64,000 bases of DNA. Source: a bacterium (GTDB lineage Bacteria > UBP6 > UBA1177). Of this stretch, positions 2,940 to 40,066 are shown piece after piece. A program made the position numbers and the translations under genes. Location: the NCBI GenBank assembly GCA_016290135.1, contig JAEESW010000006.1, positions 27,670 through 91,669 of the forward strand. Reading direction: 5' to 3'. Position 1 is the stretch's first letter. Each line of letters begins with the position of its first letter. The notes under the pieces were generated by a model that was given only the letters and a program-made list of their open reading frames with translations, was not told the origin of the DNA and searched no databases.

Positions 2940-3908
2940 TCACCTTCTCAGGTGGAGCAGTATCGAATGGGCCAAAGAGACCTTCTTACCGTGCTTCGGA
3001 GCAGGGAATTTCATCTCTCTCACTCCTGCCGCGATACAGTTTTCGACCGTAAGATTGCCGAAAGTGCTCATATAGACACCGGAATACAAGACCTTGCCTT
3101 CAGGAGAGACAATATATTCGACAGTCACCCTTCCGTGTTTCATATCGCTGTCTTCCTGCATTCCTTTGTAAATGCAGAAAGAAAAATCCTTCATCTTATC
3201 GTCGAACTGTTTGTTTATATCCTTTTCGCTGATAGGAAAGTTATCCTCTTTGTCAGCTTTCTTCTCTTTTTCATCCTTTTTTTCATCCTTATCAGCTTCC
3301 TTTTCATCTTCTTCAAAATAATACCAGTCCGACCTCGCAATGCATCTCGCGTAGAGTTTTGATTCCTTGCTGACACTTCCGATCATTCCGCTGTAAAAAA
3401 CGGCGCCCCAAGCCTTGTTATCATCATCGGAAAGCGATGATCCCGACCACAGTCCGATGTAATCCGCATCGCCGAACATGCTGTAATGACCTCTGTTTTT
3501 CGGCTTTCTTTCGCAAGTACACGAATTTTTAGGAGCCGAGCAGTTCCCGGCAAGGCATCTGCCCTCATCGCTCACGCGGCAGCTTCCGCCAGGCTCGGTC
3601 GCCGGACAGTTGCGCATCAGTTCCCTAAGCTCGTCGACATTCGGCAGACGCCATGTTTCGCCCCAGAAATCGAGTTTTCTGCAGTAATCCTGAGCTTCTT
3701 TCCATGTCATTTTAGTTAAAGAGCGTGCCGAGAAAATAAAGTTCCCGTCACTCTCGACGATCTCGATCCCTCCTTCCGCCGCGGAATAAGCCTGTGCCGC
3801 AGCTGCTTCCTCATCTTCGAGTTCGTTGTCCTTTTTATCCTCTGCAAAAAGGGCAACTATGCCGAAAACTGCGATAAAAAGAAACAAAGGCAAACTTTTT
3901 CTCATCAT
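2940..3908 (-). CDS. secreted protein fusing a Fib_succ_major-like domain to an AgmX/PglI-C (TonB_C-like) domain
   Basis: Signal peptide MMRKSLPLFLFIAVFGIVALFA. The first domain reads MTWKEAQDYCRKLDFWGETWRLPNVDELRELMRNC...LYARCIAR. A KEADKDEKKDEKEKK linker follows, then ...VTVEYIVSPEGKV...ENCIAAGVREMKFPAPKHG. The start ATG overlaps the murJ stop (ATGA). Confidence 0.7.
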   Translation of the reverse strand: MMRKSLPLFLFIAVFGIVALFAEDKKDNELEDEEAAAAQAYSAAEGGIEIVESDGNFIFSARSLTKMTWKEAQDYCRKLDFWGETWRLPNVDELRELMRNCPATEPGGSCRVSDEGRCLAGNCSAPKNSCTCERKPKNRGHYSMFGDADYIGLWSGSSLSDDDNKAWGAVFYSGMIGSVSKESKLYARCIARSDWYYFEEDEKEADKDEKKDEKEKKADKEDNFPISEKDINKQFDDKMKDFSFCIYKGMQEDSDMKHGRVTVEYIVSPEGKVLYSGVYMSTFGNLTVENCIAAGVREMKFPAPKHGKKVSLAHSILLHLRR

Positions 3909-5508: not shown

Positions 5509-6450
5509 TCACTCTTCCACCTTCTTAAACACAAAAGGATAGTTCACGATAACTATTCCGCCCCCTTTAGGAGCAGGAAATTTGATTTTTTTGATTACTC
5601 CGGCAACGCAGTTTTCGACTTCGGCATTGCCCATCGTCGTTCTCTGCACTTTGGCAGAACTCACATCGCCGCTTGCCGAAATAACGAAGTTGATGACGAC
5701 TCTTCCGGCTAATTTCCTATCTTTCGCAAGTTCATTTTCATAACATTGTCTTATTTTACCGACACTTTTTCTGACATACGAATCGATCGTGCATCTGTTT
5801 AAAGCACCCATTATTACCGGAGTCTCATGGGAAACGGATTCTTCTTTTAAATCCACTTCCTTAACGCATCTCGCATAAAATTTTCCGCTTTTTTTGTTGC
5901 TGCCGACCATTGCGCTGTAATAAACGATGCCCCACGCACTGTCCGGATTGTCGGAAAGAGTTGATGAAGACCAGAGAGCGATATTGTCTTCATCGCAGTT
6001 GGCACTGTAAAAACTCCCTTTTGCGATCCTCTCGCAGCTGCACGAACCTTTCGGGTTTTTGCACTCGGAAGAAAGACAACCGTTTTTCTCGCTCACTCTG
6101 CACTCGCCGCCGGACTCGGTTTTCGAACATCCGATTATCCCTTTTCTCAATTCGTCGATATTCGGAAGATGCCAGCCGCCCGAACCTTTTTCCGACAGAT
6201 TTTTGCAGTAGTTCACAGCATCGTTCCAAGTCATCTTTTCTGGAGAACGGTCGGAAAACAAAACAGTCTTTCTACTCCCACTTGCAGTACTTTCTTCATT
6301 TTCAAGTTCATTGTCTTGTTCCGGTGCCGATCCATTCTGCGTCCGGTTTGTATCTTCCGACGCGTTTTTCTCAGTTTTCCCGTCATCAGCAAAGAGTAGT
6401 ACCGTCAAAAAAGCTGAAATCAAAAGGACTAAAAACAAAAGTTTTTTCAT
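5509..6450 (-). CDS. secreted protein fusing a Fib_succ_major domain to an AgmX/PglI-C (TonB_C-like) domain
   Basis: The probable start is MKKLLFLVLLISAFLTVLLFADDG. It contains ...MTWNDAVNYCKNLSEKGSGGWHLPNIDELRK...KFYARCVKE. The C-terminus reads IRQCYENELAKDRKLAGRVVINFVISASGDVSSAKV...ENCVAGVIKKIKFPAPKGGGIVIVNYPFVF. The TGA stop overlaps the GTG start of the murJ ORF. Confidence 0.7.
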   Translation of the reverse strand: MKKLLFLVLLISAFLTVLLFADDGKTEKNASEDTNRTQNGSAPEQDNELENEESTASGSRKTVLFSDRSPEKMTWNDAVNYCKNLSEKGSGGWHLPNIDELRKGIIGCSKTESGGECRVSEKNGCLSSECKNPKGSCSCERIAKGSFYSANCDEDNIALWSSSTLSDNPDSAWGIVYYSAMVGSNKKSGKFYARCVKEVDLKEESVSHETPVIMGALNRCTIDSYVRKSVGKIRQCYENELAKDRKLAGRVVINFVISASGDVSSAKVQRTTMGNAEVENCVAGVIKKIKFPAPKGGGIVIVNYPFVFKKVEE

Positions 6451-6592
6451 GGTTTCACTCCGTAAGCGCAAAAACACGGAAAAAAATAGAGAAAATGAAA
6501 ACAGAAAGCAAGAAATCCATTGATAAGCCACAAGTCGGACAAAAAATGCAGACTCCGCAAAAATAATTCGAGTCGAAGTGTAAAAAGCACTG

Positions 6593-6620: not shown

Positions 6621-6670
6621 AAGACGTGACTGCGGATTATCCCAAATTTTGCGGATAATGGAGGTGAAAA

Positions 6671-7912
6671 ATGGCTTTTTTTGAACGGCATGCGGAAAAG
6701 ACTTTAACACGGCTCGAATCTTCATTTCCGGCAGTTCTCGTAACAGGTGCGAGACAGACGGGAAAAACCACACTTTTAAAGAAAATGACCGATGCGAAAT
6801 CGGTAAGAAGCACCACTTTTGACGACATTGCGGAAGAGCGGTCGGCAAAAACTGATCCGAAAACCTTTCTCGAACTCCATCCGAGTCCGTATATGTTTGA
6901 TGAAGTCCAGTATGTACCCGATTTTTTCCGTTATCTTAAAATCGAAATCGACAAAAACCGTAAAAACGGCATGTTTTATCTCACCGGAAGCCAGCAGTTC
7001 AAACTGATGGAAGCAGCAACCGAAAGCCTTTCTGGAAGGATCGGGATCGTCCAGCTTTATCCGCTTTCGGCGAGAGAGATCCGCCGCGACGGTTTTTCCG
7101 ACAACTTTATTCCGACAAAAGAGTATATTCTGGAACGGAACAACGCCCTTTCAAACCGCACTTTTTCTACCCAGAAAATCTGGGAGCGCATCTATACCGG
7201 CGGTTATCCCGAAGTCGTAAAAGGAAATGTTGATCCGAAAGATTTTTACGCATCATACCTTAAAACCTACATAGAGCGCGACATCAGAAGCCTGACTCAG
7301 GTCGCCGACGAAATGCAGTTTTTGCAGTTCATAACGATAGCGGCATCGAGAACGGGCCAGCTTCTGAACTACACTGACATGGCACAGGAATGCGGGATCA
7401 GCGAGGGAACTGCAAAAAAATGGATGTCGCTGCTTACGACTTCTGGAATCGTCTATCTCCTGAAGCCATATTCGACAAAAGTTGAAAAGCGGGTCGTAAA
7501 AACTCCGAAACTTTACTTCATGGATACCGGACTTGCCGCGTATCTCACCAAGTGGACAAGCCCGCTCGTCATGCAGACAGGTGCGATGGCGGGAGCTTTT
7601 TTTGAAACCTACATTGTGAGTGAAATAATCAAATCGTTTGCCAACAACGGCGTTGAAGCTCCGATTTATTTTTACCGCGACAAAGACAAAATCGAAATCG
7701 ACCTCATCATCGAACAGAACAGCATAATTTATCCCGTTGAAATCAAAAAGACCGCAACGCCTAATTCCGACGACGCGAAAAACTTTTTTATAACAGGCCG
7801 CCTGAAAGATGTTCAGATCGGTCAGTCTACAGTCATCTGCTGCACGGACAAAGTCGTTTCCGTCAAAAAAGGTGAAGCATCAGCTTTAGCAATTCCTGCT
7901 GATTTTGTGTGA
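6671..7912 (+). CDS. AAA-family ATPase (DUF4143 / COG1373-type ATP-binding protein)
   Basis: The ORF is 413 aa with a Walker A motif VLVTGARQTGKTTLLKKM. It shows the typical AAA_14 + DUF4143 layout (...YFYRDKDKIEIDLIIE...). It is the only plus-strand gene inside the minus-strand lipoprotein array. Confidence 0.8.
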   Translation: MAFFERHAEKTLTRLESSFPAVLVTGARQTGKTTLLKKMTDAKSVRSTTFDDIAEERSAKTDPKTFLELHPSPYMFDEVQYVPDFFRYLKIEIDKNRKNGMFYLTGSQQFKLMEAATESLSGRIGIVQLYPLSAREIRRDGFSDNFIPTKEYILERNNALSNRTFSTQKIWERIYTGGYPEVVKGNVDPKDFYASYLKTYIERDIRSLTQVADEMQFLQFITIAASRTGQLLNYTDMAQECGISEGTAKKWMSLLTTSGIVYLLKPYSTKVEKRVVKTPKLYFMDTGLAAYLTKWTSPLVMQTGAMAGAFFETYIVSEIIKSFANNGVEAPIYFYRDKDKIEIDLIIEQNSIIYPVEIKKTATPNSDDAKNFFITGRLKDVQIGQSTVICCTDKVVSVKKGEASALAIPADFV

Positions 7913-7960
7913 GTTATCCGGCAGTTAAGCAAATTTTGTAGTTTTGTTAAAGTATCGAAT
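7913..7960. repeat. degenerate copy (A) of the intergenic repeat element (GTTATCCGGCAGTTAAGCAAATTTTGTAGTTTTGTT...)
   Basis: It shares the GTTATCCGGCAGTTAA head and the ATTTTGT(A/G)(G/A)TTTTGT core with copies B and C. It lies immediately 3' of the AAA ATPase gene. Confidence 0.4.
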
Positions 7961-8077
7961 CCAATTGTTTTTCAATATCCCGACCATAGTACATAACGCG
8001 GATAATCGTCACGATTTTTCGTCTTTTTATCGGATTTTTTCGAAAAAATTTAGGAAGTGCAAATATCGATTAACACA

Positions 8078-9322
8078 TCACTCTTCCTTGTTCTTGAATG
8101 TGAAGGGATGGTTCACGAAAACTATGCCACCACCTCTCGGAGCAGGGAATTTGATTTTTTTTATTTGTTCAGCAACACAGTTTTCGACTTCGGCATTGCC
8201 AAGCGTAGTCCTCAGCACTTTAGAAGAACTGACGTCGCCGCTTGCAGAAATAATGAAGTTAACGAGGACTCTTCCTGCGAGTTTCGGATCTTTCGCAAGT
8301 TCTTTTTCATAACATTTATTTATTTCATCTTCGCTTTTTCTGATATACGAATCGATCGTGCAATTGTCTAAAGCAGCCATTATTACCGCAGTCTCCGGTG
8401 GAACGGATTCTTTTTTTAAATCCACTTCCGTCACGCATCTCGCATAAAATTTTCCGCTTTTTTTGTTGCTTCCGACCATCGCGCTGTAAAAAACGACGCC
8501 CCACGCGCTGTCCGGGTCGTCGGAAAGAGTTGATGACGACCAAAGAGAGACATTGTGTTCATCGCAGTTGGCACTGTAAAAACTCCCATTTGAGACCCTC
8601 TCGCAGCTGCACGAACCTTTCGGGTTTTTGCAATCCGATGAAAGACATCCGTTTTTCTCACAGACTCTGCACTCGCCGCCGGACTCGGTTTTTGAGCATC
8701 CGATTATCCCTTTTCTCAATACATCGATATTCGGAAGATGCCAATCGGTCAAACCTTTTTCCGACAGATTTTCGCAGTAGTTCACAGCATCGTTCCAAGT
8801 CATTTTTTCTGGAGAACGGTCGGACCAAAGCAGGACTGTTTTATTATTATCCGAAACTTTTTCCTCAACCACCGCGTTTCTGAATACAAAAGAATAATTG
8901 TAAACAACAGTACTTGCGTCTTTCGAAACAGGAAATTTGATTTTGCCTACCTGATCTGCGACACACTTTTCGACACCAGAATCATTCATCGTTGTTGACA
9001 CGACCTTTGATTCACTGACATCTCCCGTTGACTGAATAACGAAGTCGAGAACGATTATTCCGGCGATTTCAGGATGTTTACGAACTCCGTTTTCATAGCA
9101 AAATCTGAGCTTTGGCAGAATTTTCCTGACATGCTCCTCTATTACTTTTTTATCAAGGGCTCCATTTACCGTAGCTGTATGCGGGTTTTCTGCAGTTGTC
9201 AATCCTCTTGCTACAATTTTGCCGCTGGTTTCTGCTTTTTCTTCCTTCTTTTCACTCTCTGCCGAAGCACAGCCGTAAAGAAACGCCGCAGTTATGAAAA
9301 GTAAAAACAGAATTTTTTTCAT
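8078..9322 (-). CDS. lipoprotein with an AgmX/PglI-C-like domain, a Fib_succ_major domain and a second AgmX/PglI-C-like domain
   Basis: MKKILFLLFITAAFLYGCAS is a lipobox. The N-terminal domain reads LRFCYENGVRKHPEIAGIIVLDFVIQSTGDVS...KCVADQVGKIKFPVSK...YNYSFVF. The middle reads MTWNDAVNYCENLSEKGLTDWHLPNIDVLRK...FYARCVTE. The C-terminus reads CYEKELAKDPKLAGRVLVNF...FPAPRGGGIVFVNHPFTF. The last ~260 aa are about 85% identical to 5509..6450. Confidence 0.7.
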   Translation of the reverse strand: MKKILFLLFITAAFLYGCASAESEKKEEKAETSGKIVARGLTTAENPHTATVNGALDKKVIEEHVRKILPKLRFCYENGVRKHPEIAGIIVLDFVIQSTGDVSESKVVSTTMNDSGVEKCVADQVGKIKFPVSKDASTVVYNYSFVFRNAVVEEKVSDNNKTVLLWSDRSPEKMTWNDAVNYCENLSEKGLTDWHLPNIDVLRKGIIGCSKTESGGECRVCEKNGCLSSDCKNPKGSCSCERVSNGSFYSANCDEHNVSLWSSSTLSDDPDSAWGVVFYSAMVGSNKKSGKFYARCVTEVDLKKESVPPETAVIMAALDNCTIDSYIRKSEDEINKCYEKELAKDPKLAGRVLVNFIISASGDVSSSKVLRTTLGNAEVENCVAEQIKKIKFPAPRGGGIVFVNHPFTFKNKEE

Positions 9323-9332
9323 TGGTTCACCC

Positions 9333-10058
9333 CTATTCCAAATTCAGCCTGTGTTTCAGTATAAAGTATGTCGCAACGCCGTAAATTGCGGAAAAAGCCA
9401 ACAAAATTAACGACATAGCACGAGCGTCGTGATATTTAACTATTTTGACGACACTGTCAAATACATCTGCCGAAATCCTGAAAGTCGCGCTCAGAATCAT
9501 AACGACCGTAACAACCATCGCGATCTTTCTATGTTTTTTTGCAAGATGCCCCACCGCATTCACAAGGTATGCAAACAAAACGACAGTTATGAAAATTGAT
9601 GCGAGCAGCAGCCAGTTCTCAAACTCATAGTCATATTTTTTTGCTATACCGGCAATAATCATAGACAAAAATCCACACACCAGACAGACAGGGATCCATG
9701 CAACAACCGATAAAATCCGTCCCCAGAGATGTTCACCGACCGTAACCGGAAGCATAAGGTTAAGGTAAGCTTCATCTCCCAGAAGACCTGTTTTGAAACG
9801 CCGGATAAAAACAGCTGCGGAAACAACTCCGGAAGTAACCAGAATCACAGAGTAAAGTATCATAAAAATCCCGGATATGCTGTCAAAAGCACTGTCCAGT
9901 CCCTCAAATCCGTCTAAAAAAAACATCCGGCAGATCAATGCTACAAAAACAGTGGTGACATAGATCGGCAGAAGGATACGCGCCGTATTTTTCATTTCAT
10001 ATTTGAATACCTTCAAAATCCAGGGGAAAGGATTCCTGACCGACTTTGTTTTTTCCAT
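9333..10058 (-). CDS. polytopic membrane protein, probably the permease partner of the adjacent ABC ATPase
   Basis: The ORF is 241 aa with about 6 hydrophobic segments. It sits 11 nt downstream of the ABC ATP-binding gene. Confidence 0.55.
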   Translation of the reverse strand: MEKTKSVRNPFPWILKVFKYEMKNTARILLPIYVTTVFVALICRMFFLDGFEGLDSAFDSISGIFMILYSVILVTSGVVSAAVFIRRFKTGLLGDEAYLNLMLPVTVGEHLWGRILSVVAWIPVCLVCGFLSMIIAGIAKKYDYEFENWLLLASIFITVVLFAYLVNAVGHLAKKHRKIAMVVTVVMILSATFRISADVFDSVVKIVKYHDARAMSLILLAFSAIYGVATYFILKHRLNLE

Positions 10059-10069
10059 AGAAATCCTCC

Positions 10070-10777
10070 TTAACTCTGCCTTAACTTGAAATCTTCGCGG
10101 AAAAGCGCGTCTATCGACATTCCCGTTTCTGTGCGTATTTTGTCAGTTTCACCCTGACGGATCAGCCGGCCATCATGAAGAAACAGCACATAATTCAAAA
10201 ACGGTTCGATATCGCTGATAAGATGAGTCGAAATAATTACGGTTGCATCTTTGTCACGGTTGGCAATTATCGTTTCAAGAATGTAATCCCGCGCCGCCGG
10301 ATCAACGCCGCCGATCGGCTCGTCAAGCATGTAAAGCTTAACATCGCGGCTCATCGTAAGAATCAGCTGCACCTTTTCCTTGTTTCCTTTTGAAAGGCTT
10401 TTGAGCTTGCTATCAAGCTCTATATTCAGATCTTTCAGCATTTCATGCGCCCTGTCAGTGCGGAAATCATGATAGAAATCAGACATCATTTTTACAAGGT
10501 CGCCGACCGTCATCCAATCGTTCAGATAAACGCGGTCAGGCTGATAGGCAGACGCTTCCTTAGATTCGACTCCGGGATCAAAACCGCATACCGTGATATA
10601 ACCTTCTGTCGGCTGCAAAAGACCTGCGGCAAGTTTGAGAAGCGTTGTCTTTCCGCTGCCGTTAGGACCGAGCAGACCGACGATCGTACCTTTCGGAACA
10701 GAGAGACTGATCCCGTCCAAAGCGGTTTTTGAGAGATACTTTTTTGTCAGATCGAAACACTCTAAAACCGAATCCAT
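10070..10777 (-). CDS. ABC transporter ATP-binding protein
   Basis: Walker A is GPNGSGKTTLLKL. The ABC signature is LSKGNKEKVQL. Walker B is LYMLDEPIGGVD. The H-loop is STHL. Confidence 0.85.
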   Translation of the reverse strand: MDSVLECFDLTKKYLSKTALDGISLSVPKGTIVGLLGPNGSGKTTLLKLAAGLLQPTEGYITVCGFDPGVESKEASAYQPDRVYLNDWMTVGDLVKMMSDFYHDFRTDRAHEMLKDLNIELDSKLKSLSKGNKEKVQLILTMSRDVKLYMLDEPIGGVDPAARDYILETIIANRDKDATVIISTHLISDIEPFLNYVLFLHDGRLIRQGETDKIRTETGMSIDALFREDFKLRQS

Positions 10778-10861
10778 CTATCTTCCTCCAAGCAATTTTT
10801 TCATGATTTCACCCTTCAAGCAACAATGATTTTAGCAATATAATATGCATCGTTCTTGATG

Positions 10862-11338
10862 CTATCCATATATTTTCACTCCGTATCTCAAGATTTCATT
10901 CAGAAGATCGCTGTTTCCGTTCAGCTGCTGCACATTGAGCAGATCGACATTTTTTTTCAAAGCGTTTTTAAGCTTTTCCACTATGCCGTAAAACTTCAGT
11001 CCGCTCACTTCCGATGAAATGAGAAGATCGACATCGCTGGTTTCTGAAGCAGAACCTTTGGCATAAGACCCGAACAGATAGCAGTATTTGACACCGTATT
11101 CCGGCAGCACATTGAGACATGCATCACGAATCTCGTCGACATCCAAAACGCCGTGAGTTTCGTCAACAAAAATAAGCTTTTGCAGTTGCTCAACCATGTA
11201 GGCATACTTGATTGAAGAAACTTTTTCAGGATCATTTTCGTAAGTTTTGTAGGTCCGAAGCGAAACTTTGAGATAATCAGACGCTTCCTTCTGAGTCATA
11301 CGACTTTTTAACCTAAGTTCTTTCAAAGAGTTTTCCAT
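10862..11338 (-). CDS. fusion of an XRE-family HTH to a minimal nucleotidyltransferase (MNT-type)
   Basis: The likely start is MENSLKELRLKSRMTQKEASDYLKVSLRTYKTYEN, which is the HTH. An AGGTGG RBS lies just upstream. The C-terminal half reads GVKYCYLFGSYAKGSASETSDVDLLI, which matches the G[SG]x9-13Dx[DE] NTase motif. Confidence 0.7.
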   Translation of the reverse strand: MENSLKELRLKSRMTQKEASDYLKVSLRTYKTYENDPEKVSSIKYAYMVEQLQKLIFVDETHGVLDVDEIRDACLNVLPEYGVKYCYLFGSYAKGSASETSDVDLLISSEVSGLKFYGIVEKLKNALKKNVDLLNVQQLNGNSDLLNEILRYGVKIYG

Positions 11339-11366
11339 TTCACCACCTCGCATAGAAAGAATACTC

Positions 11367-11470
11367 CACTTTGCACCTTTGTCAAGATAGAAAGTGCAAA
11401 AATTCGCATCTTTTTGATGCCTATAGTGCAAAAATTGCACTTTGAAGAAATTTTGAGTGCAAAACTCGCG
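11367..11470. promoter_or_regulatory. candidate operator cluster: five GTGCAAA half-sites including a perfect 17-bp palindrome AGTGCAAAAATTGCACT
   Basis: AGTGCAAAA occurs at about 11393, 11425 and 11456. The inverted half-site TTGCAC(T) occurs at about 11372 and 11435. All lie directly upstream of the HTH-NTase gene start on the minus strand. Confidence 0.4.
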
Positions 11471-11527
11471 TTATCCGCCAGTTAAACCGGTAGATTTTGT
11501 GATTTTGTGAAAAGTTTACGGGTTAAC
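11469..11527. repeat. ~58-nt intergenic repeat element, copy B (GTTATCCGCCAGTTAAACCGGTAGATTTTGTGATTTTGTGAAAAGTTTACGGGTTAA)
   Basis: It is near-identical (about 2 mismatches) to 34466..34525 and partially similar to 7913..7960. Confidence 0.55.
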
Positions 11528-11528
11528 A

Positions 11529-11562
11529 CCTCCGCAGATTCAGTTTCCCGAACCTGCGGAGG
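11529..11562. other. perfect 9-bp inverted repeat CCTCCGCAG-N16-CTGCGGAGG (hairpin)
   Basis: Read directly from the sequence. It lies between repeat copy B and the 3' end of the minus-strand gene 11597..12268. No T-tract follows on either strand. Confidence 0.35.
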
Positions 11563-11596
11563 ATGTTTGAAGTGTCTGTCTGCCTACACGACCTAC

Positions 11597-18245: not shown

Positions 18246-21200
18246 CTATCTGACACAACGAACATCATGGTTGCCAGTCTTACTGCCATCGCCATAGTTA
18301 AGTACCCGTCCGTTTGTGAAAAGCACATACCATGCGTATCGTGTATTGCCCACATAGGTAGATGAAGACCAGAAAGATGAACTCGGCATACCGGGGAAAT
18401 ACGAATAAGAATAACTTGATTCGAAGTTTACCAAAGATGCCACTTCATGTTTATTAGGAAGTCTCCAGTCGGTATATCCGGCAGAATCCAAGTTCTCACA
18501 ATATTCCAAAGCCTGCTGCCATGTTTTATTTGAAACATAGTCTTTCTGCCACATGAGTCCGGTTCTATTATCTGTAACCGTCAAGCCGTCTGACGATGTC
18601 GTAAAATCGTTTGATACCGCAGGTTTCATCTCTTCTCCGCTGACACAAAGAACTTTTTGCGGGGCAGTTTTTGTGCCATAGTCATACCATGACCGACTGT
18701 AACAGTAAGCAACGTTTGTGTGACCTTTATATTCGTTGTTTGTCCACAAGCATACACTGTTGTCTGTCGGCATTCCGGTGAAATTCGAGTTTGTTGCAGG
18801 ATTATATTTGCTGTTGTCAACTATTGTGAGAAATTCAAGCGGATTCGGAACACGCCAGTTGCTCTTTCCTCCGTAATTCGAGATGTTGAGCTCGCTGCAG
18901 TGTGTTGCTCGGTTCTCCCAAGTGTATGTTTCTTCCGACGGTGTCGGCTCCCATGTGAGGCCGGTATTGTTATCGACCACAACTTCTTGTGATGAAATTG
19001 TTTTAACAGCGAAACTCTGCGTGGTGCATTTGCCAAGGTTCGCATAATATACATCCTGACCAAAGAAATCGGCACTTTCAGATGTTGGACAGGTGATTTC
19101 TTCTTCGTTGCTGTAGCATTTTGTCTGGCCAGTGCATATTCTGCCAAGCGTTACCACACACAGTTCTCCATTCCACCAATACCCTGAATTGCATACAAAT
19201 GTACACGTTCCGGCAGTGCTGTTTTGAGTTGCCGTGTAAACAGGTATCCATGCTGAACCATCCCATGTTTGAGTATAGTTTGTTGTACCATTCCACTGTG
19301 CATTTGTCGGAAGTCCTATGCAATCTATAGTTCTTGTTTCTCCGACAAGAAGACACATTGAAGAATCTACGTCGTATTTATATTCGCCGTCGCATTTAAA
19401 GTGGCATTCGCTTGTGCTCGGTGTTTCATTGTATTCTGTGATGTTTGATGGCAACCATGCTGTGGTGTGAGGCCAGCCATCATCATCTACTGTGAATGTC
19501 TGGGTAATGCTTGAAACCGTGTTGTAGCTTGCATGATCAGTAATCTCTGAACAGTTTACTACTCTGGTATCACCTTCTGTCACACAAAGGCTCATTGAAT
19601 CATCCCACCAATAGTTATCTATGCATATAAAACGACACTCGCTCTCACTGGCTGTTTCATTGTAACTTCCTATCGTTGATGGCTGCCAGTTCTCACCGTT
19701 CCAAGTTTGTTTTATACTGGAAACCGTGTTCCACTTAGCGTTTGCAGGAAGACCTGTACAGTCAGAAGTTTTTGTGTCAGCAATGCATCCATACGAAAAT
19801 AAGTTATTCTTCCATGTATAATTCGTTTTGCATTTATATCTGCATTCCGTTGTGCTTGCAGTCTCGTTATAGACCCCCGCAGTGTCAGGGAACCATTCCT
19901 CGCCGTCATAAGTCTGAGTTATACTTGGAACTGTGTTCCACTCTGCGTTTTCCGCCAGGTCGGTGCAGGCTGCTGTCCGCGTAGGAGCTATAATACACTG
20001 GTTCTCGCTCCAGATGTAGCCTGTTGTGCAGATATATTTGCAAGTTCCTGCTGTTTTGCTGTAACTTGACGCATAACTTGTCGGAGTCCATGCAGAACCG
20101 TTCCAAGTCTGAGTGAATTTGCCGTTCATATCGTTATCATTCCATATTGTATTTGCCGGTTTTGATGAACAGTTCTCCTCCTTCGTGTCAGCAACACACT
20201 TTTGAGTTGAGCTGTTCCAAGTGTAATTCGTTTTGCAATTATACCTGCATTCGCTCTCACTGGCTGTTTCATTGTAACTTCCTTTCGTTGTCGGTTGCCA
20301 GCTTGAGCCGTTCCACGTCTGGGTTATTGATGAAGCCGTGTTCCACTGAGCGTTTGAAGGAAGTCCTGTACAGTTTGCAGTTTTTGTGTCCGCAACACAC
20401 TGCGAGTTCTTCCATGAATAGTTAGTTTTGCATTTATAGCGGCACTCCGTTGTGCTCGCAGTCTCGTTATAGACACCCGTAGTGCCAGGAAACCATTCCT
20501 CGCCGTCATAAGTCTGGGTTATACTTGAAACTGTGTTCCACTGCGCATTCGCAATCAATCCAGTACAGCTCGCAGTCTGCGTAGGAGCTGTAACACATTG
20601 GTTCTCGCTCCAGACATAGCCTGTGGTGCAAATATATTTGCAGAGTCCTGCTGTTTTGCTGAATTCTGAAACATAAGTCGCTGGAGCCCAGTCTGATCCA
20701 TCCCAAGTCTGAGTAAATTTACCATCGGCATCGTTGTCATTCCAAACAGTGTTTTCTGGTTTTGATGAACAGTCGGCACTTCTTGTATCGGCTGCGCAAG
20801 CACTTCCGTTCCATGTATAGTTTGTTCCGCATACATATTTGCAAGTTCCTGCTGTTTCGCTGTAATCCGAAGCATAAGTTGCAGGGAGCCATGCTGAACC
20901 GCTCCATGTCTGCGTAAATTTGCCGTTTGCTCCGTTATCGTTCCAAACGGTGTTTGACGGCTTTTCATCACACGCCGCGTTTCTAGTGTCTGCTACGCAC
21001 TCCGAATCGTTCCATGTGTAGTTTATTGCACATTTGAATCTACACTCTGTTTCGCTTGATTCTTCATTATACATGCCTTTTGCCGAAGGCGCCCACTCAC
21101 TTCCGTTCCATGTCTGCTCAATTTCACCGGCTTTGTTCCATTCTGCGTTTTCAGGAAGATCTTCACATTCTTTTGTTCTCGTATCTGGAACACAGTCGTC

Positions 21201-21590
21201 ACCGGAATAATTTTCTTTGCAAACGCAGGAATAACTGCCCTTTTCATTCGCGCAGATGCTCACTGCGTTATTACATTTGTTGAGCGATGGATCTGCACAT
21301 TCGTCAATGTCAACACATTCGTTGTCGGAATTTAAAGCATAACCGTTTTCGCACTTGCATTTATAATCCTCATCTCCTTCTCCGGTATTTTTGCATTTTC
21401 CGTGTATACCGCAGGGATTATCCTTGCATGGATTGAAACACTTTGAACCGTTCCAAAATCCTTCTGTCTTCTCGCATTCTTCTCTGTCGAAAGCCAAAGC
21501 TATATTTTCACTGTTGTCTGCAACACTGCTGCAAGAGACAAGAATCAGGCTGAAAATCAAAAACAAAAATGTTACAATCATTGCTTTCAT
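18246..21590 (-). CDS. giant (1114-aa) lipoprotein with N-terminal EGF-like modules, about 10 degenerate ~60-aa repeats and two C-terminal Fib_succ_major-like domains
   Basis: LILVSCSS is a lipobox. CxNxCxxxxCGxxGxC is EGF-like. The repeats have the form TQTW(N/D)GS.W.P......(E/Y).(A/T)...(S/T)EC(R/K)(Y/F).C..NY.W.....C(V/I)ADT. The C-terminus has SNWRVPNPLEFLTIVD and TDWRLPNKHEVASLVNF ... HDVRCVR. Confidence 0.75.
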   Translation of the reverse strand: MKAMIVTFLFLIFSLILVSCSSVADNSENIALAFDREECEKTEGFWNGSKCFNPCKDNPCGIHGKCKNTGEGDEDYKCKCENGYALNSDNECVDIDECADPSLNKCNNAVSICANEKGSYSCVCKENYSGDDCVPDTRTKECEDLPENAEWNKAGEIEQTWNGSEWAPSAKGMYNEESSETECRFKCAINYTWNDSECVADTRNAACDEKPSNTVWNDNGANGKFTQTWSGSAWLPATYASDYSETAGTCKYVCGTNYTWNGSACAADTRSADCSSKPENTVWNDNDADGKFTQTWDGSDWAPATYVSEFSKTAGLCKYICTTGYVWSENQCVTAPTQTASCTGLIANAQWNTVSSITQTYDGEEWFPGTTGVYNETASTTECRYKCKTNYSWKNSQCVADTKTANCTGLPSNAQWNTASSITQTWNGSSWQPTTKGSYNETASESECRYNCKTNYTWNSSTQKCVADTKEENCSSKPANTIWNDNDMNGKFTQTWNGSAWTPTSYASSYSKTAGTCKYICTTGYIWSENQCIIAPTRTAACTDLAENAEWNTVPSITQTYDGEEWFPDTAGVYNETASTTECRYKCKTNYTWKNNLFSYGCIADTKTSDCTGLPANAKWNTVSSIKQTWNGENWQPSTIGSYNETASESECRFICIDNYWWDDSMSLCVTEGDTRVVNCSEITDHASYNTVSSITQTFTVDDDGWPHTTAWLPSNITEYNETPSTSECHFKCDGEYKYDVDSSMCLLVGETRTIDCIGLPTNAQWNGTTNYTQTWDGSAWIPVYTATQNSTAGTCTFVCNSGYWWNGELCVVTLGRICTGQTKCYSNEEEITCPTSESADFFGQDVYYANLGKCTTQSFAVKTISSQEVVVDNNTGLTWEPTPSEETYTWENRATHCSELNISNYGGKSNWRVPNPLEFLTIVDNSKYNPATNSNFTGMPTDNSVCLWTNNEYKGHTNVAYCYSRSWYDYGTKTAPQKVLCVSGEEMKPAVSNDFTTSSDGLTVTDNRTGLMWQKDYVSNKTWQQALEYCENLDSAGYTDWRLPNKHEVASLVNFESSYSYSYFPGMPSSSFWSSSTYVGNTRYAWYVLFTNGRVLNYGDGSKTGNHDVRCVR

Positions 21591-31979: not shown

Positions 31980-32867
31980 TTATTCCTCCGTTTTTTCAGG
32001 CACTTTTTTTTCGTCGTTTTCTTTCTCTTGTTCTTTTTTATAATCTTCTAACTTTTTTTCTAACATCCTTAGAAATTCATCTTCCCTCCAAAGGAGTTGG
32101 TTTTTCTCTTCGTCAGTCAGAGTGTTAGGATCTTCCTTTTTTTCTTCGGGTGCTTTTTTATCATTGCATTCCATTTCCTTTTTTTCTTCGGGTCGTTCTT
32201 CCAAGATGAAAAATTTCATAAAATCTTCTCTTTTCACCCCATATTTTTCTTCAATTTTTTTAATTAATTCCTCTCCTTTTTCTTCCTGCTGTTTCCAAAT
32301 CCAGTGATTCAAGATTATGGATAATTCTTCAATAAAATTCTTGTTCTTATCATTATTTATATTATAATTCAGATCATTAAGAACTTGTTCGATTTCTCTC
32401 AAAAATTTTAGATATTTATCCAACTCTTCCAAGTTTATGGAATAAAGTTCAGAAATATAAACAAAGTATTCCTTTCTAACTTTTCCGCCTTTAATATCAA
32501 CAACAGACGGCAGTTCAGCTATTTTGGTAAAAACTTCTTCCATTAAACTTCTCGCTTTTTTAAAAGCTTCATCTATCCTGGGATCCGATAATGATTCAGT
32601 AAAGTCATTGTTTAAGATTCCATTGAAGATTACCTCTATTTCAGGATTAGATTCTATTAAATTGATAAGATATTCAAGATCTTTCTCTGACACTTGTTTA
32701 TCTTTTTCGGAAAGTTCAACACTCTTATCAGCAGTCGTCTGTTCCTGCGTTACCAGTTCACTTTTCTCAACGACAGCACCTTCATTTTTTGCCGGAACAC
32801 TTCCGCACGCAACCGTCACCACAGCGACAGCCAAAACCAAAATGGTTAAAATAATTGAGTTTTTCAT
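31980..32867 (-). CDS. Glu/Lys-rich lipoprotein, hypothetical
   Basis: The probable start is MKNSIILTILVLAVAVVTVACGS, which has a lipobox. The remainder is highly charged with E/K repeats. Confidence 0.5.
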   Translation of the reverse strand: MKNSIILTILVLAVAVVTVACGSVPAKNEGAVVEKSELVTQEQTTADKSVELSEKDKQVSEKDLEYLINLIESNPEIEVIFNGILNNDFTESLSDPRIDEAFKKARSLMEEVFTKIAELPSVVDIKGGKVRKEYFVYISELYSINLEELDKYLKFLREIEQVLNDLNYNINNDKNKNFIEELSIILNHWIWKQQEEKGEELIKKIEEKYGVKREDFMKFFILEERPEEKKEMECNDKKAPEEKKEDPNTLTDEEKNQLLWREDEFLRMLEKKLEDYKKEQEKENDEKKVPEKTEE

Positions 32868-32915
32868 TTTATCCTCCTTAAACTTCAGATTCATCAAAAA
32901 CATATTGAAGTATTC

Positions 32916-33957: not shown

Positions 33958-34160
33958 TCTTGTTGGGTTTATACAACAAAATTTTGTTAAAAAATTCGGT
34001 TGACAACATTACAATAATATGACGGTCGATTTGCTTTACACAAGAAGAAGTTCAATTATCTCGAACTCGCGATTTCTTTTGTATTTTTGCGGCGTTATCA
34101 TGCTGAAACTCTTTGACATCCGGAAACGGATTATTATAATGCCTGCGATTTTTTTGCTTA

Positions 34161-34451
34161 TTGAGGTCAAATATCGTGACAAACACTGAAATCCGCGCCG
34201 AATTCGGGAAAAGACTCAAATTTTTGAGAAAATTCAGAAAAATGTCTCAATGGGATCTTTCACGTCTGAGCGGAATCGACAGAGCATATATTTCAGAAGT
34301 CGAAAACGGAAGAAGTGCCGCTACGATAGACCTTATCAACCGCATGGCAAGAGCTATGGATCTGTATCCGGCCGAGTTTCTCGTTTTCAGCAGGGAACAG
34401 CCGGTACGCTCTTATGAAGGCAAAAATCTTTCAGATTCCGCAACAAAATAA
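34161..34451 (+). CDS. XRE-family HTH transcriptional regulator (96 aa, TTG start in the ORF track)
   Basis: KRLKFLRKFRKMSQWDLSRLSGIDRAYISEVENGRSAATIDLINRMARAMDL is a canonical Cro/C1-type HTH. Confidence 0.65.
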   Translation: MRSNIVTNTEIRAEFGKRLKFLRKFRKMSQWDLSRLSGIDRAYISEVENGRSAATIDLINRMARAMDLYPAEFLVFSREQPVRSYEGKNLSDSATK

Positions 34452-34465
34452 TAATAAAAGCAGTT

Positions 34466-34525
34466 GTTATCCGGCAGTTAAACCGGTAGATTTTGTGATT
34501 TTGTGGAAAGTTTACGGGTTAAGTT
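34466..34525. repeat. ~58-nt intergenic repeat element, copy C (GTTATCCGGCAGTTAAACCGGTAGATTTTGTGATTTTGTGGAAAGTTTACGGGTTAAG)
   Basis: It is near-identical to 11469..11527. It lies between the convergent HTH gene and pta. Confidence 0.55.
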
Positions 34526-34533
34526 GAAAAGAC

Positions 34534-35529
34534 TTAGTTTGCAGCCTGGATCGCTGTTGCTGCAACTACGTTTACGATATCGTCAACCGAGCAGCCTCTC
34601 GAAAGGTCGTTGACCGGTTTTGCGATTCCCTGAAGGAAAGGACCGACTGCTTCAGCTTTTGCAAGTCTCTGAACGAGTTTGTAGCCGATGTTTCCGCTCT
34701 GAAGATCGGGGAAGATGAGTACGTTCGCCTGTCCTGCGATCGGGCTCGTCGGGCATTTCGTCTTGCCTACGCTTGCGACCATAGCTGCGTCAGCCTGGAT
34801 CTCGCCGTCAGCTGCAAGGTCGGGAGCTGTTTCGTGGACGAGTTTTACTGCTTCGACGACTTTGTCTACGAATTCGTGTTTTGCGCTGCCGTAGGTCGAG
34901 AAGCTGAGAAGTGCGACTTTCGGATCCATGTCGCAGAAGGATTTTGCGGTCTGAGCGGTAAGGATCGCGCTCTCTGCAAGTTCTGCCGATGTCGGATTCG
35001 GGTTGACTGCGCAGTCGCCGAAGAGGAACATTCCGTTGCTGCCGAGTTCGCAGTTGGGAACTATCATAACGAATGCGCTGGAAACCGATTTGATGCCGGG
35101 TTTCGTCTTTATGATCTGGAGTGCCGGACGGATCGTGTCGCCGGTCGAATGGATGGCGCCGCTTACGAGACCGTCTGCAACGTCCTTTTTGACCATCATC
35201 GTTGCGAAGTAAACTTCGTCAGCCATCATTTTGCGTGCTTTTTCCATATCGACGCCTTTCGCCTTTCTCATTTCGTAGAATGTGTTGACGAAATCTTCGT
35301 AGTATTCGCTGTTTACCGGATCAACTATTCTTGCGCCGTCGATCTTTACGCCGAGTTCCTTTGCAGCTGCATTGATCTTTTCGGGGTTGCCGATGAGGAT
35401 CGGTTTCGCGATCTTCTTTTCAAGGATGATCTGGGTCGCCTTGAGTGTCCTCGGTTCGGTTCCTTCCGGAAGAACTATCGTTTTCTGTACTTTGATTGCC
35501 TTTTCGCGCAAAGTTTCAATAAAATTCAT
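34534..35529 (-). CDS. pta: phosphate acetyltransferase
   Basis: The ORF is 331 aa. It reads MNFIETLREKAIKVQKTIVLPEGTEPRTLKA...GDTIRPALQIIKTKPG...ANVLIFPDLQSGNIGYKLVQR, which is a PTA_PTB family signature. Confidence 0.9.
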   Translation of the reverse strand: MNFIETLREKAIKVQKTIVLPEGTEPRTLKATQIILEKKIAKPILIGNPEKINAAAKELGVKIDGARIVDPVNSEYYEDFVNTFYEMRKAKGVDMEKARKMMADEVYFATMMVKKDVADGLVSGAIHSTGDTIRPALQIIKTKPGIKSVSSAFVMIVPNCELGSNGMFLFGDCAVNPNPTSAELAESAILTAQTAKSFCDMDPKVALLSFSTYGSAKHEFVDKVVEAVKLVHETAPDLAADGEIQADAAMVASVGKTKCPTSPIAGQANVLIFPDLQSGNIGYKLVQRLAKAEAVGPFLQGIAKPVNDLSRGCSVDDIVNVVAATAIQAAN

Positions 35530-36965: not shown

Positions 36966-37000
36966 CCATCGTTTTTTTGTTAAACTTTTCGGAGGAGACA

Positions 37001-40000
37001 ATGAAAAAATTCCTACTGGCTTTTATGTTTTTTATTCCATTTCTGCTTTCTGCGGCAATCGGCGACACTGGGATCTCCGTTGATCCTGACGGCAAACAAC
37101 TCAAATGGGAAGAAGGTGCATGGGACTTCTTTATCATGCACAAATCCCTGATAGAAAATCTGACGAACTCGGCAAGCACGACTGCAGGAAACCCGCAGGC
37201 CGACACATGCATGGATCCGAATGTCGGATCGACCTACAGGCTCACATCCAAACACATTCCGCCGGATGCCGACATCGACAGAGCGTTCCTCGTATGGCTC
37301 GCTCCTCAAGATCCCGACAATCTGATGGGCAACACCGACAACTCGGTAACGCTCACATTCACGAACGCGGCTGATCCTTCAATAACGATCACGAAGGATG
37401 TCACCGCTTCCGTCCAGGGCAATCTTGCGACAACGCAGCTCGGCAACTTCGAATACGAAGCTCTCAATATGCCCGACTCGTCAACAGGAAACACCGGTGT
37501 TTTCACATACCGTGTAGAAGTTTCCGACTTCATGAAAGAGATCATCTCAATGGGCGAAGCAAAAGGCATGAACCCCGGTGAGGCTCTTTACGGCGACTAC
37601 AATGTCAAGGGTATGGACTGCTCCAACCATCAGAACTACCTCACGACAAGCGGTCTCGTAGGCGGCTGGGCACTTCCTTTCGTCTACACTTCGGCTCACA
37701 TCAACCCCAAGAAGATCTACTTCTACCATGGTCTTGCAGCATACCGTTTCCAGGCTGCTTTCCTGACTGTTGCAGGCTTCGAGCTTCCGGCTGAAGCAGT
37801 CATCAAACTCGGTTTCGTCGTTCACGAAGGCGACCCGGGACTTGCAAGCAGAACAGGCACCAGCGTTTTAGGGCAGGCTGAGCCTGAGGCTATCGGTATC
37901 AGCGGCTTCTCCGATCCGGCGAACTACGCTCTTCTTTTCAACAACTGCAACCCGCCGAGACATCAGGACAGCACTGGTCTGGCTTTCGAATACACCGAGA
38001 TCTACAACTCGATCTCTTCGATCTTCAGCTGGGAAAACAGCGACGAATACTGGTGCATCGGTAATCCGGACAACCCGCTTGACCAGACCAATCCGATAGA
38101 ATACGCTATCGATGCCGATATTCTGGTCGTCGATGCAGGTCCTACCGGTCCTTTCTACGGTAAATTCAACAAAGGCGATACGCAGTTCGGCCTCAAGATC
38201 GGCGCGAACCAGGACCAGGTCTACACCAATTTCCTTATCGTAAGCGTTGATACCAAGGCTCCGAAATTCGATATTCCGAACAACCCGAAGACTCCCGACG
38301 GCAGAGAGAAAAACTACTGCTCCTGCTCGACTGACGCAGACGCGGTTTGTGCAGACAGACCTTTCTACTACACGATCAAGATCCAGAACTGGGGCGAGAA
38401 CCAGGCTGGAAACGTAACGCTTCAGGATACTCTTCCGACACAGGTCGACTATGTTCCCGGAACGACTGAGATCGCGACAAAATTCGATGCTAACGGCCTC
38501 GGAATCGACTGGGAAACGGTCGAAGATGTAAACGGCGGCTTCCCGTTCGCTTCAGCAAAGAGCATAGCTGACGTTATGACTGTCCACTGCGACAAGATCA
38601 ACGAACCCGACTACTGCAGCGAAGGTGCGTGGGTAAGATTCGTCGTAAGACCGAAAGCAAACCTTTCGAAGAACGAAGTCATCAGAAACACCGCGGTCAT
38701 CTCCGGCGACGGACTTCCCTACAACTCGAACAGCAACATTCCGCTCAGACTCAAACTCGGACAGTGCCCGGCTGTTACGGAATGCGAACTTCCTCCGAAG
38801 ATGCAGTGCGGCGGTGTCAAGATCGACAACGAAAACTACTGCACAGAGGATAAGGACTGCAAAGACGGCAAAAAATGCGTGAACAACGAGTGTATCCTTG
38901 ACGCTAACGCTGACCTTGCAAGCAACTCCGAAGTATCCTACGATCTTGGAACGAACTCTCCGAACAGCGGAACGGCTTCGATCATCATCCCCTCGCCGAG
39001 CGACAATCTTGTTCTCGGCCAGTTCTACCTTCTTTCCGAAGGTGACAAAGGCAAATTCTACGAGTTCCACACCGCTAAATTCAAACTCAACAAAGAGACC
39101 GACGTCATCGCAAAGAACTTCAGACTTTACAAAGATGAAGACGGCGACGGCAAAGTCGGCGAAGGCGATATCCTGATCGCAAGCGAACCGGAACTCAAGA
39201 ACTCGTATTACATGGATTTCTCGATAACCGATCCGGCAAACAGACTTACAAAATCCGGCATAAAGAACTACTACATCGTAGTTGCAGACCTTAAGCTCAA
39301 TGAAGGCGGAAGATCCGGCAAGTTCAGTCTTGTGATCGAAGACAGCGGCGCTTTCAAGATCACGGATGCCGGCGAAGCTAAGATAAAAGGCTCCAAAGTC
39401 GATTTTGCATCGTTCAGATTCGAACCGGCAGACGGTTTTGTCTTCACCAAAGGCAAAGAGACATCTGTTCCTTCATTCAAAGATTTCAACGGTGACCACG
39501 AGATCCTTCATGTCAGAACGAAATCGATCGGCTCCGCTGACGCTATAAGCTCGATCAAAATAAGGATCCCGTCAAGCTACGTTAAATTCGGCGAAGGCAT
39601 CAAATCGGTATCTCTCTATATCGACAACGACCAGGACGGACTCGCAACATCCAACGACACGCTCATCAAGAAGGTCACCGAGTTCTCCAGCGCAACGAAT
39701 GTTTCCATCGACGGACTCAAAGAGATCCTCACCTACACTGAGAACGAAGAAAAATACCTCGTTTTCAAAGCTGAATTCAAAATGAATGTCGGCGAAAAGG
39801 CGAAATTCCAGATCCCGTCAGGAAACAATGGTGTAAAGATCACGAGCGGCAAAGAGATCGTCGAACTTCCGGTAACGTCGAACGAATTCTCCTACGAATG
39901 CGACAAGAACGATCCTACATCCTGCGGCAGCGGAGACGATGACGGCGGCGGCTGTGCAGTATCAGCGCTTCCGGAAACTTCGAACAGCACGCTTTATGTC

Positions 40001-40066
40001 GTTCTTGCAGCTCTCGCTTCAATGCTTGCGCTTGCAGCAGCAAAACTTTTCGCTTCAAAAAAATAA
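37001..40066 (+). CDS. large secreted surface protein (paralog 1) with a DUF11-like domain, Ca-binding-like DxDGDGK motif, Ig-like regions and a C-terminal LPETS-type sorting-signal-like tail
   Basis: Signal peptide MKKFLLAFMFFIPFLLSAAIG. YYTIKIQNWGENQAGNVTLQDTLPTQVDYVPGTTEIA matches the DUF11 consensus. DEDGDGKVGEGD is a Ca-binding-like motif. The C-terminus reads DDDGGGCAVSALPETSNSTLYVVLAALASMLALAAAKLFASKK. It is about 60% identical to the next gene. Confidence 0.8.
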   Translation: MKKFLLAFMFFIPFLLSAAIGDTGISVDPDGKQLKWEEGAWDFFIMHKSLIENLTNSASTTAGNPQADTCMDPNVGSTYRLTSKHIPPDADIDRAFLVWLAPQDPDNLMGNTDNSVTLTFTNAADPSITITKDVTASVQGNLATTQLGNFEYEALNMPDSSTGNTGVFTYRVEVSDFMKEIISMGEAKGMNPGEALYGDYNVKGMDCSNHQNYLTTSGLVGGWALPFVYTSAHINPKKIYFYHGLAAYRFQAAFLTVAGFELPAEAVIKLGFVVHEGDPGLASRTGTSVLGQAEPEAIGISGFSDPANYALLFNNCNPPRHQDSTGLAFEYTEIYNSISSIFSWENSDEYWCIGNPDNPLDQTNPIEYAIDADILVVDAGPTGPFYGKFNKGDTQFGLKIGANQDQVYTNFLIVSVDTKAPKFDIPNNPKTPDGREKNYCSCSTDADAVCADRPFYYTIKIQNWGENQAGNVTLQDTLPTQVDYVPGTTEIATKFDANGLGIDWETVEDVNGGFPFASAKSIADVMTVHCDKINEPDYCSEGAWVRFVVRPKANLSKNEVIRNTAVISGDGLPYNSNSNIPLRLKLGQCPAVTECELPPKMQCGGVKIDNENYCTEDKDCKDGKKCVNNECILDANADLASNSEVSYDLGTNSPNSGTASIIIPSPSDNLVLGQFYLLSEGDKGKFYEFHTAKFKLNKETDVIAKNFRLYKDEDGDGKVGEGDILIASEPELKNSYYMDFSITDPANRLTKSGIKNYYIVVADLKLNEGGRSGKFSLVIEDSGAFKITDAGEAKIKGSKVDFASFRFEPADGFVFTKGKETSVPSFKDFNGDHEILHVRTKSIGSADAISSIKIRIPSSYVKFGEGIKSVSLYIDNDQDGLATSNDTLIKKVTEFSSATNVSIDGLKEILTYTENEEKYLVFKAEFKMNVGEKAKFQIPSGNNGVKITSGKEIVELPVTSNEFSYECDKNDPTSCGSGDDDGGGCAVSALPETSNSTLYVVLAALASMLALAAAKLFASKK

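Follow-up and report, generated by a model that had tools for sequence, protein, structure and literature searches.

What is a 57-base sequence that recurs between murJ and pta, and why does it stand exactly where unrelated stretches of DNA meet? The window, by which we mean the whole 64-kb stretch of DNA analyzed here, contains this sequence, named E in the following, in two nearly identical copies and a decayed third one. An earlier note, made from the sequence of the window alone, had described an element of about 58 nt and considered a small RNA, a site for a regulatory protein or a miniature repeat. Based on the copies in the window and on related loci, which we designate by L numbers, E was apparently duplicated because blocks of surface-lipoprotein genes recombined into it, and it marks the seams of a fast-changing island.

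The two full-length copies, W1 (11470-11526, GTTATCCGCCAGTTAAACCGGTAGATTTTGTGATTTTGTGAAAAGTTTACGGGTTAA) and W2 (34466-34522), are both on the plus strand and match at 55 of 57 positions, with an E-value of 3e-23 in a blastn-short search within the window. Their edges are sharp: in the alignment, the flanks are unrelated on all four sides and the similarity ends abruptly. The decayed copy, c3 (7913-7952, plus strand), was recognized as a profile match. It has kept an exact 16-nt head, GTTATCCGGCAGTTAA, followed by a 4-nt deletion, ATTTTGTAGTTTTGTT and then divergence, the tail being lost. An nhmmer profile built from 10 instances revealed no further copy in the 64-kb window. All three copies share one orientation (+) and each of them is intergenic. 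W1, the left (attL-like) junction, is placed between a gene encoding an HTH and nucleotidyltransferase protein and an Lcl_C gene. W2, the right junction, starts 14 nt after the stop codon of an XRE gene (34451) and ends 11 nt before the stop codon of pta (34534); this is probably the ancestral position of E. The copy c3 immediately follows the stop codon of a DUF4143 ATPase gene. Read on the minus strand, each copy is located downstream of the 3′ end of some gene. The element has an invariant core, the tandem ATTTTGTG, and three GTTA(A/T)..CCG-like motifs; within the window, the doubled ATTTTGTG occurs only in W1 and W2. No terminal inverted repeats were found in E, and neither a target-site duplication nor other duplicated flanking bases are visible at its copies. 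The earlier description was thus accurate with regard to the near-identical pair, the degenerate third copy near 7913, the intergenic positions, the lack of obvious terminal inverted repeats, the tandem ATTTTGTG and the two copies adjoining HTH genes. The gene order around W1 is repeated in a contig of GCA_016648615.1, its context also in the JGI contig L024, which ends inside E, and the context of W2 is repeated in four contigs. Independent assemblies thus contain both junctions, which rules out an assembly error as the source of the repeat.

Gene identities were taken from Pfam scans of the sizeable ORFs in the window. The locus begins with murJ (–), an Lcl_C-TonB_C lipoprotein gene (–) and the AAA_14/DUF4143 ATPase gene (6671-7912, +), whose stop codon abuts c3 and which belongs to a block 97-100% identical across species. 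The block between c3 and W1 (7953-11469) carries a second Lcl_C-TonB_C gene, a hypothetical gene, an ABC ATPase gene and the HTH-nucleotidyltransferase gene (10862-11338), all on the minus strand, and its gene content differs among L001, L004 and L011. W1 and W2 bracket a block of 23 kb (11527-34465) with about 23 minus-strand genes, for the most part Lcl_C/DUF1566 lipoprotein paralogues. This array ends with the XRE-family HTH gene on the plus strand (34176-34451, 91 aa), which has a TTGACA-16-TATAAT promoter at 34113-34140. W2 is followed by the core gene pta (phosphate acetyltransferase; 34534-35529, –; PF01515, E-value 7e-131), which carries E in its 3′ flank, and by further core genes. 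GC content is 0.36-0.44 in the W1-W2 block versus 0.47-0.50 beyond pta, with an abrupt step at 34 kb; within the array, it declines from 0.44 to 0.36 towards pta. The Pfam domains in the sizeable ORFs between 11.5 and 34.5 kb are confined to Lcl_C, CarboxypepD_reg, EGF and XRE. No integrase (Phage_integrase), serine recombinase or transposase domain was detected by Pfam in the sizeable ORFs of the 64-kb window, and no recombinase was found by the same means among the genes called or the key ORFs in related loci.

The lipoprotein-type genes at 11597-33957, like those at 2940-3908, 5509-6531 and 8078-9322, are for the most part Lcl_C/DUF1566 genes with lipoprotein-like N-termini, and several in the array and the related stretches also contain CarboxypepD_reg or BACON domains. 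The gene content of the array is entirely different between related genomes. One of its genes (18246-21590) encodes a 1114-aa protein with EGF and Lcl_C domains and harbors internal DNA repeats with a period of ∼600 nt (19622-21190, 61-81% identical). On the other side of pta, two tandem paralogous genes for proteins of ∼1030 aa (36977-40066 and 40239-43340, DUF11/DUF7619) show 73-77% DNA identity over most of their length. The DUF4143 ATPase gene of the window is located between two paralogous Lcl_C-TonB_C genes (5509-5808 versus 8078-8377, 81% identical). In L014, a DUF4143 ATPase gene is flanked by a 60-nt direct repeat (7719-7778 and 9269-9328, 88% identical), which apparently represents the 3′ end of an Lcl_C gene. 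The segment 6400-8150 includes c3 as well as the DUF4143 ATPase gene and the first part of the next gene's 3′ end. Its identity to L004, L011 and L001 is 97-100%, compared with 50-88% for the neighboring DNA and ∼87-92% for pta, which suggests that this block was recently exchanged between species.

Further features were noticed at places where blocks join or next to W1. A 5′ leader of ∼120 nt (AATCTGATTTCTTGCTTTC...GGTTTCAC-ATG-AAAAAA) is common to different genes, including Lcl_C genes, Lcl_C-TonB_C genes and the ABC operon. Stretches of this leader are found at 6402-6573 in the window, at 7443-7564 in L004, in L005, at 12383-12479 in L006 and at 9350-9404 and 11837-11891 in L011, and it represents a second repeated intergenic module at the joints between blocks. 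Upstream of the HTH-nucleotidyltransferase gene, three AGTGCAAAA repeats with a spacing of 31-32 nt occupy positions 11393-11464 and end 5 nt before W1. This sequence occurs six times in the window against 1.1 expected, and the three repeats, which are kept in L011, are probably operators of the HTH-nucleotidyltransferase regulator. The Lcl_C-223 gene is followed downstream by a strong GC-rich hairpin (CCTCCGCAG...CTGCGGAGG) without a T-tract, which occupies 11530-11563 immediately to the right of W1.

An exact-pattern scan of one genome per GTDB species identified four loci with E, all of them from rumen Spirochaetales MAGs and syntenic with the window. Two more loci, also syntenic, were obtained by a pattern scan of JGI metagenome contigs. 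No match to the pattern was present in viral contigs, and BLAST searches of plasmid and phage records returned no copy of E. In the collections scanned, E is restricted to the murJ-pta locus. We discarded a genome-wide dispersed repeat as an explanation, because only syntenic copies appeared in the related genomes scanned and the plasmid and phage searches were blank. The independent instances amount to only ∼10. E adjoins pta in L002, L003, L005, L023 and L028-L030, and these pta-side copies vary, with one or two ATTTTGTG units and drifting tails. The tail of E is replaced by a GC-rich hairpin in L003, and the pta gene of L001 stands without E, indicating that E is dispensable there. According to the earlier note, E would be a local duplication remnant if no further copies existed genome-wide. 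Our scans of related genomes come close to that situation; yet E is conserved beside pta and lies exactly at presence/absence breakpoints, which points to a recombination junction rather than to a passive remnant.

W2 is located next to the XRE gene as well as next to pta, and we considered to which of the two E belongs. A small Lcl_C gene (–) together with an XRE gene (+) ends lipoprotein arrays at six or more chromosomal contexts. The XRE gene of this terminal module has a consensus TTGACA-16-TATAAT promoter, and in every case the module points towards a gene's 3′ end, once that of tmRNA. E is present wherever XRE abuts pta (L002, L003, L023, L028) and absent at all five other contexts, where the arrays end at the 3′ ends of alaS, tmRNA, a gltD-like gene, a PDDEXK_9 gene and an S24 repressor gene. 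A linkage of E to the XRE gene is therefore ruled out, and E belongs to the flank of pta. The multiple contexts suggest that XRE-terminated arrays, the kind of block bracketed by W1 and W2, behave as relocating islands.

The Lcl_C-XRE terminal module is seen in L014, L016, L020, L025, L031, L023 and L028, with the XRE gene at ∼10001-10280 in most of them. In L031, the distance between the module and the tmRNA 3′ end (gene at 10298-10646) is 19 nt, and no direct repeat of this tmRNA 3′ end was found within 10 kb. In L016-L019, the XRE stop codon and the gltD-like gene are separated by a ∼30-nt remnant of a PDDEXK_9 3′ end (CTTTATTTCTGATATTTATCGATCAC; ∼10289-10330 in L016). L014 contains a full PDDEXK_9 gene at this position, and such ATPase genes recur at array edges.

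Which gene blocks are joined at E in relatives? Four states were observed: a single copy, two copies around an array, two copies around one ATPase gene with exchanged tails, and a split copy. In L005, a 1.9-kb metagenome contig that could be an assembly collapse across E, a single E joins a lipoprotein-gene 5′ leader straight to pta, and the 28 kb corresponding to 6573-34466 of the window are absent. The 23-kb W1-W2 block is lacking in L005 as well as in L001. The left flank of W1 is only weakly similar to that of L005, so the window and L005 do not form a clean pair of occupied and empty site. In the MAG RGIG10212, an L005-type left flank runs into one copy of E (L004b), followed by a PDDEXK_9 ATPase gene, and a second copy (L002) is located between XRE and pta; L004 and L002 are separate contigs of this MAG, linked only through binning. 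In the three-way alignment, the homology switches exactly at E.

The Logan contig L011 contains two copies of E 1844 bp apart with only a PDDEXK_9 ATPase gene between them. Its left copy (L011a) combines a W1-type head and core with a variant tail, tail B (GAAAGTCTGCAGTTTAAACGG), and its right copy combines a variant head (CCAGTAA) with tail A, the tail of W1 and W2. Tail B accompanies the PDDEXK_9 gene in L004, too. Head and core of W1 and L011a match at 45 of 46 positions, and the surrounding DNA is ∼87% identical. Judged from their sequences, the two L011 copies show the pattern expected of attL/attR hybrids with an exchange inside the invariant core. No boundaries of a PDDEXK_9 “cassette” could be defined by comparing L011 with L014 and L016, the homology being restricted to the coding region. 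An insertion without duplication has divided E in L001 and L006, and the core of E is fused to the leader, which is followed by an unrelated lipoprotein gene; in L001, a remnant of the E tail remains beside pta after the inserted gene. These insertions look illegitimate rather than site-specific. At the end of contig L012 (∼7420-7505), the sequence downstream of c3 recurs as an inverted, fold-back copy, which probably arose as an error of assembly.

The direct repeats have sharp edges, gene blocks are present or absent exactly at E, and hybrid copies exist. For these observations we propose, at about even chances, that E is a native sequence downstream of pta in a clade of rumen Treponema-like spirochaetes and was duplicated by Campbell-type integration, so that it now forms an att-like junction repeat. 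Circles or imported DNA carrying E would recombine with the resident E, and the inserted block would thereby be bracketed by two direct copies. Each copy would keep its own outer flank, and the inner halves would be exchanged between the copies, apparently within the invariant core ATTTTGTG(ATTTTGTG)GAAAGT. Repeated events of this kind would line up blocks in tandem from murJ to pta, recombination from copy to copy would delete blocks again, and internal copies such as c3 would decay. With respect to the enzyme, RecA acting on 57 nt of homology and a site-specific recombinase supplied in trans would fit the data equally well. Recombination between paralogous genes and between the shared 5′ leaders reshuffles the locus as well, and some junctions may be independent of E.

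Other explanations start from a function of E itself. It appears rather unlikely that E is a cis-regulatory module which was copied by gene duplication or gene conversion and stands at block boundaries only incidentally. Such a module could bind a protein, act as an insulator or provide minus-strand genes with an unconventional terminator or 3′ UTR. The location of every copy downstream of a minus-strand gene 3′ end would suit such a role, as would the three GTTA(A/T)..CCG-like motifs with the invariant tandem core, the two copies beside HTH genes and the elevated identity of head and core between W1 and L011a relative to the surrounding DNA. However, no promoter-like or terminator-like site was found within E, gene duplication would bring along flanking homology, of which none is seen, and XRE orthologues occur elsewhere without E. 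An inverted repeat in the XRE promoter spacer, ATCCGGAAACGGAT, is not conserved among the XRE orthologues either. The earlier note had regarded the head motif SCGGATAAY as a site for a shared regulator. This motif occurs six times in the window against 1.5 expected, but three of the six matches are the E copies and the other three are at chance level, so it is not enriched outside of E; the match claimed at 6632 in the ATPase promoter reads GCGGATTAT and does not fit the motif. Together with the five E-free XRE contexts and the unconserved inverted repeat, this leaves the suggestion of a shared regulator-binding module without support. It is highly improbable that E gives rise to a small RNA or contains a structured RNA motif. 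Plus-strand RNA of E is predicted to fold into a 13-bp hairpin including G-U pairs (AACC-G-GUAGAUUUU ... AAAGUUUAC-G-GGUU), and several single-base differences among relatives keep the pairing via G-U or A-U. The RNAalifold consensus, however, reaches only –6.1 kcal/mol on the plus strand, with a covariation term of –0.06 and no compensatory pair, and –1.1 kcal/mol with one compensatory pair on the minus strand. W2 folded with its flanks has a z score of –1.7, and the strong scores of W1 with flanks (–4.5 to –6.1) are due to the neighboring hairpin outside the repeat. The number of ATTTTGTG units (one or two) and the tail sequence vary freely, which argues against an RNA function as well. Folding and an Rfam search had both been proposed in the earlier note. 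Its imperfect stem does exist but is weak (–3.5 to –7.4 kcal/mol as DNA, z +0.03 to –1.04 versus shuffles, hence about –1 at best in the window), and Rfam returned no match, either at gathering scores or in permissive mode. Given the weak consensus fold, the lack of convincing covariation and the missing promoter-like or terminator-like site, the idea of a small RNA was not supported.

The remaining explanations regard E as part of a mobile system. CALINs are clusters of attC sites without an integrase, and E could be a degenerate or divergent attC-type site, a CALIN-like relic served by an IntI-type integrase encoded elsewhere in the genome, which we consider very unlikely. Its length of 57 nt and the heptamers GTTAAAC and GTTAAGT, which fit the GTTRRRY consensus, would agree with such a site, and in L011 one gene lies between two copies 1.8 kb apart. 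Chromosomal integrons have been reported from Treponema species, with attC sites of 63-68 nt in T. denticola (PMC3607928). On the minus strand, E with tail B aligns with the presumed spacer and inner repeat of the T. denticola denti1 attC site (CTTCCGTTTAAACTGCA versus CTTCCGCTTAACCTGCA; Smith-Waterman z 6.2 versus shuffles, among 80 comparisons), and we treated this resemblance as no more than a lead. For the T. denticola attC sites, fold energies are –19.8 to –24.4 kcal/mol (z –6.9 to –8.6), far from the values of single-stranded E given above, which reach a z of –1.7 in a relative. A covariance model (R1) of five T. denticola attC sites detected no copy of E at an E-value ≤10, with filters on or off. 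By reading, the heptamers GTTAAAC and GTTAAGT/GTTAAAC are present but as direct repeats, candidate pairs are complementary at only 4/7 positions, no complementary outer-repeat pair bounds E, and the conserved 10-nt head GTTATCCGSC lies outside any such pair and outside the hairpin. Moreover, the PDDEXK_9 gene is accompanied by tail B and its promoter side by the variant head, which would place the exchange in the middle of E and not at a terminal G|TT. Copy spacings of 3.5 and 23 kb with many genes per block and the lack of an intI gene in the window do not fit an attC array either, and we did not classify E as an attC site. The sole match of the covariance model in the window, at 32057-32131, is non-significant (E-value 3); it lies inside the ORF 31980-32903 and corresponds to an inverted repeat, TTCTAACAT..(49 nt)..GTGTTAGGA. 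A related but different possibility, likewise unlikely though less remote, is that E serves as the site of a gene-accretion platform downstream of pta, at which a recombinase acting in trans captures and excises the PDDEXK_9 ATPase gene or lipoprotein blocks, each bearing the 57-nt site; this site would comprise the three GTTA motifs and the tandem ATTTTGTG as crossover core, and the system would be integron-like with a new type of site unlike attC. Finally, a miniature non-autonomous transposable element (MITE-like or PATE-like), inserted here three times by chance, would be short, sharply bounded and found in several different flanking contexts, as E is. This explanation is hardly credible: terminal inverted repeats, a target-site duplication and a nearby transposase gene are absent, and all copies have one orientation at a single locus, which is the only one occupied in related genomes, too. 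In the absence of dispersed copies, the miniature repeat of the earlier note was abandoned.

If E is a recombination junction as we propose, it marks the exact seams along which blocks of surface-lipoprotein genes are acquired and discarded by a gut spirochaete; these genes are likely involved in interactions with the host, phages or particles. Its position beside pta would make E a simple marker for tracking the variation of lipoprotein blocks in rumen metagenomes. Should a dedicated recombinase act on E, the locus would represent a cassette system with a site type different from the integron attC, and a platform based on E would amount to an integron-like diversification of surface lipoproteins. 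If RecA alone is responsible, we would be dealing with ordinary island turnover mediated by short repeats.

How does E compare with known recombination sites? Integrative elements that use the host recombinases XerCD at dif (IMEX) include the CTX phage and the gonococcal genetic island, and dif itself has a length of 28 bp (XerC-spacer-XerD) and is situated at the terminus of replication, at which GC skew switches sign. As in the locus described here, IMEX units are inserted without a recombinase gene of their own, form tandem arrays at the site and lie between a good and a degenerate copy of a chromosomal site that exists at one locus. E differs in being 57 nt long and, by reading, in lacking the 11-6-11 XerC/XerD architecture. 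Cumulative GC skew falls almost monotonically across the window without a switch of sign at the locus, indicating that the locus is not the replication terminus; a dif site was ruled out by this skew and by the absence of a Xer-type dyad. Integron cassette arrays and CALINs, including the T. denticola integron, resemble the E locus in that a repeat of ∼57-68 nt separates co-oriented gene blocks and no recombinase is needed in the mobile unit. In addition, two copies enclose a single gene in one relative, and part of the T. denticola attC site shows local resemblance to E. In contrast to these systems, E has neither a stable imperfect hairpin nor complementary outer repeats and is not matched by the Treponema attC model; the exchange is presumably central, the blocks contain multiple genes, and neither intI nor attI was found.

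The closest parallel is found in genomic islands, which are bounded by attL/attR direct repeats at the 3′ ends of tRNA, tmRNA or housekeeping genes and can accrete in tandem at one att site. An att site derived from tRNA or tmRNA was rejected, as the window holds no tRNA or tmRNA gene. E does not lie within a tRNA or tmRNA gene but shortly past the end of a protein-coding one, the cargo is an array of paralogous lipoprotein genes and not one of typical island functions, and neither an integrase nor an excisionase gene was found in or beside the block, including a Pfam search of the sizeable ORFs at 11.5-34.5 kb for an integrase gene next to one of the junctions. In other respects the E locus agrees with such islands. 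Same-direction repeats of tens of nucleotides (W1/W2, 55/57) surround a block at the 3′ end of a core gene, and the composition of this block is unlike that of the flanking core genome, as seen from the GC step at 34 kb. The block is missing in relatives, L005 having a single copy on its short contig and L001 lacking the 23 kb; the hybrid copies fit a crossover inside the repeat, and internal copies are decayed. Direct repeats bounding an inserted variable gene block are a kind of feature already known, and E is another example of it.
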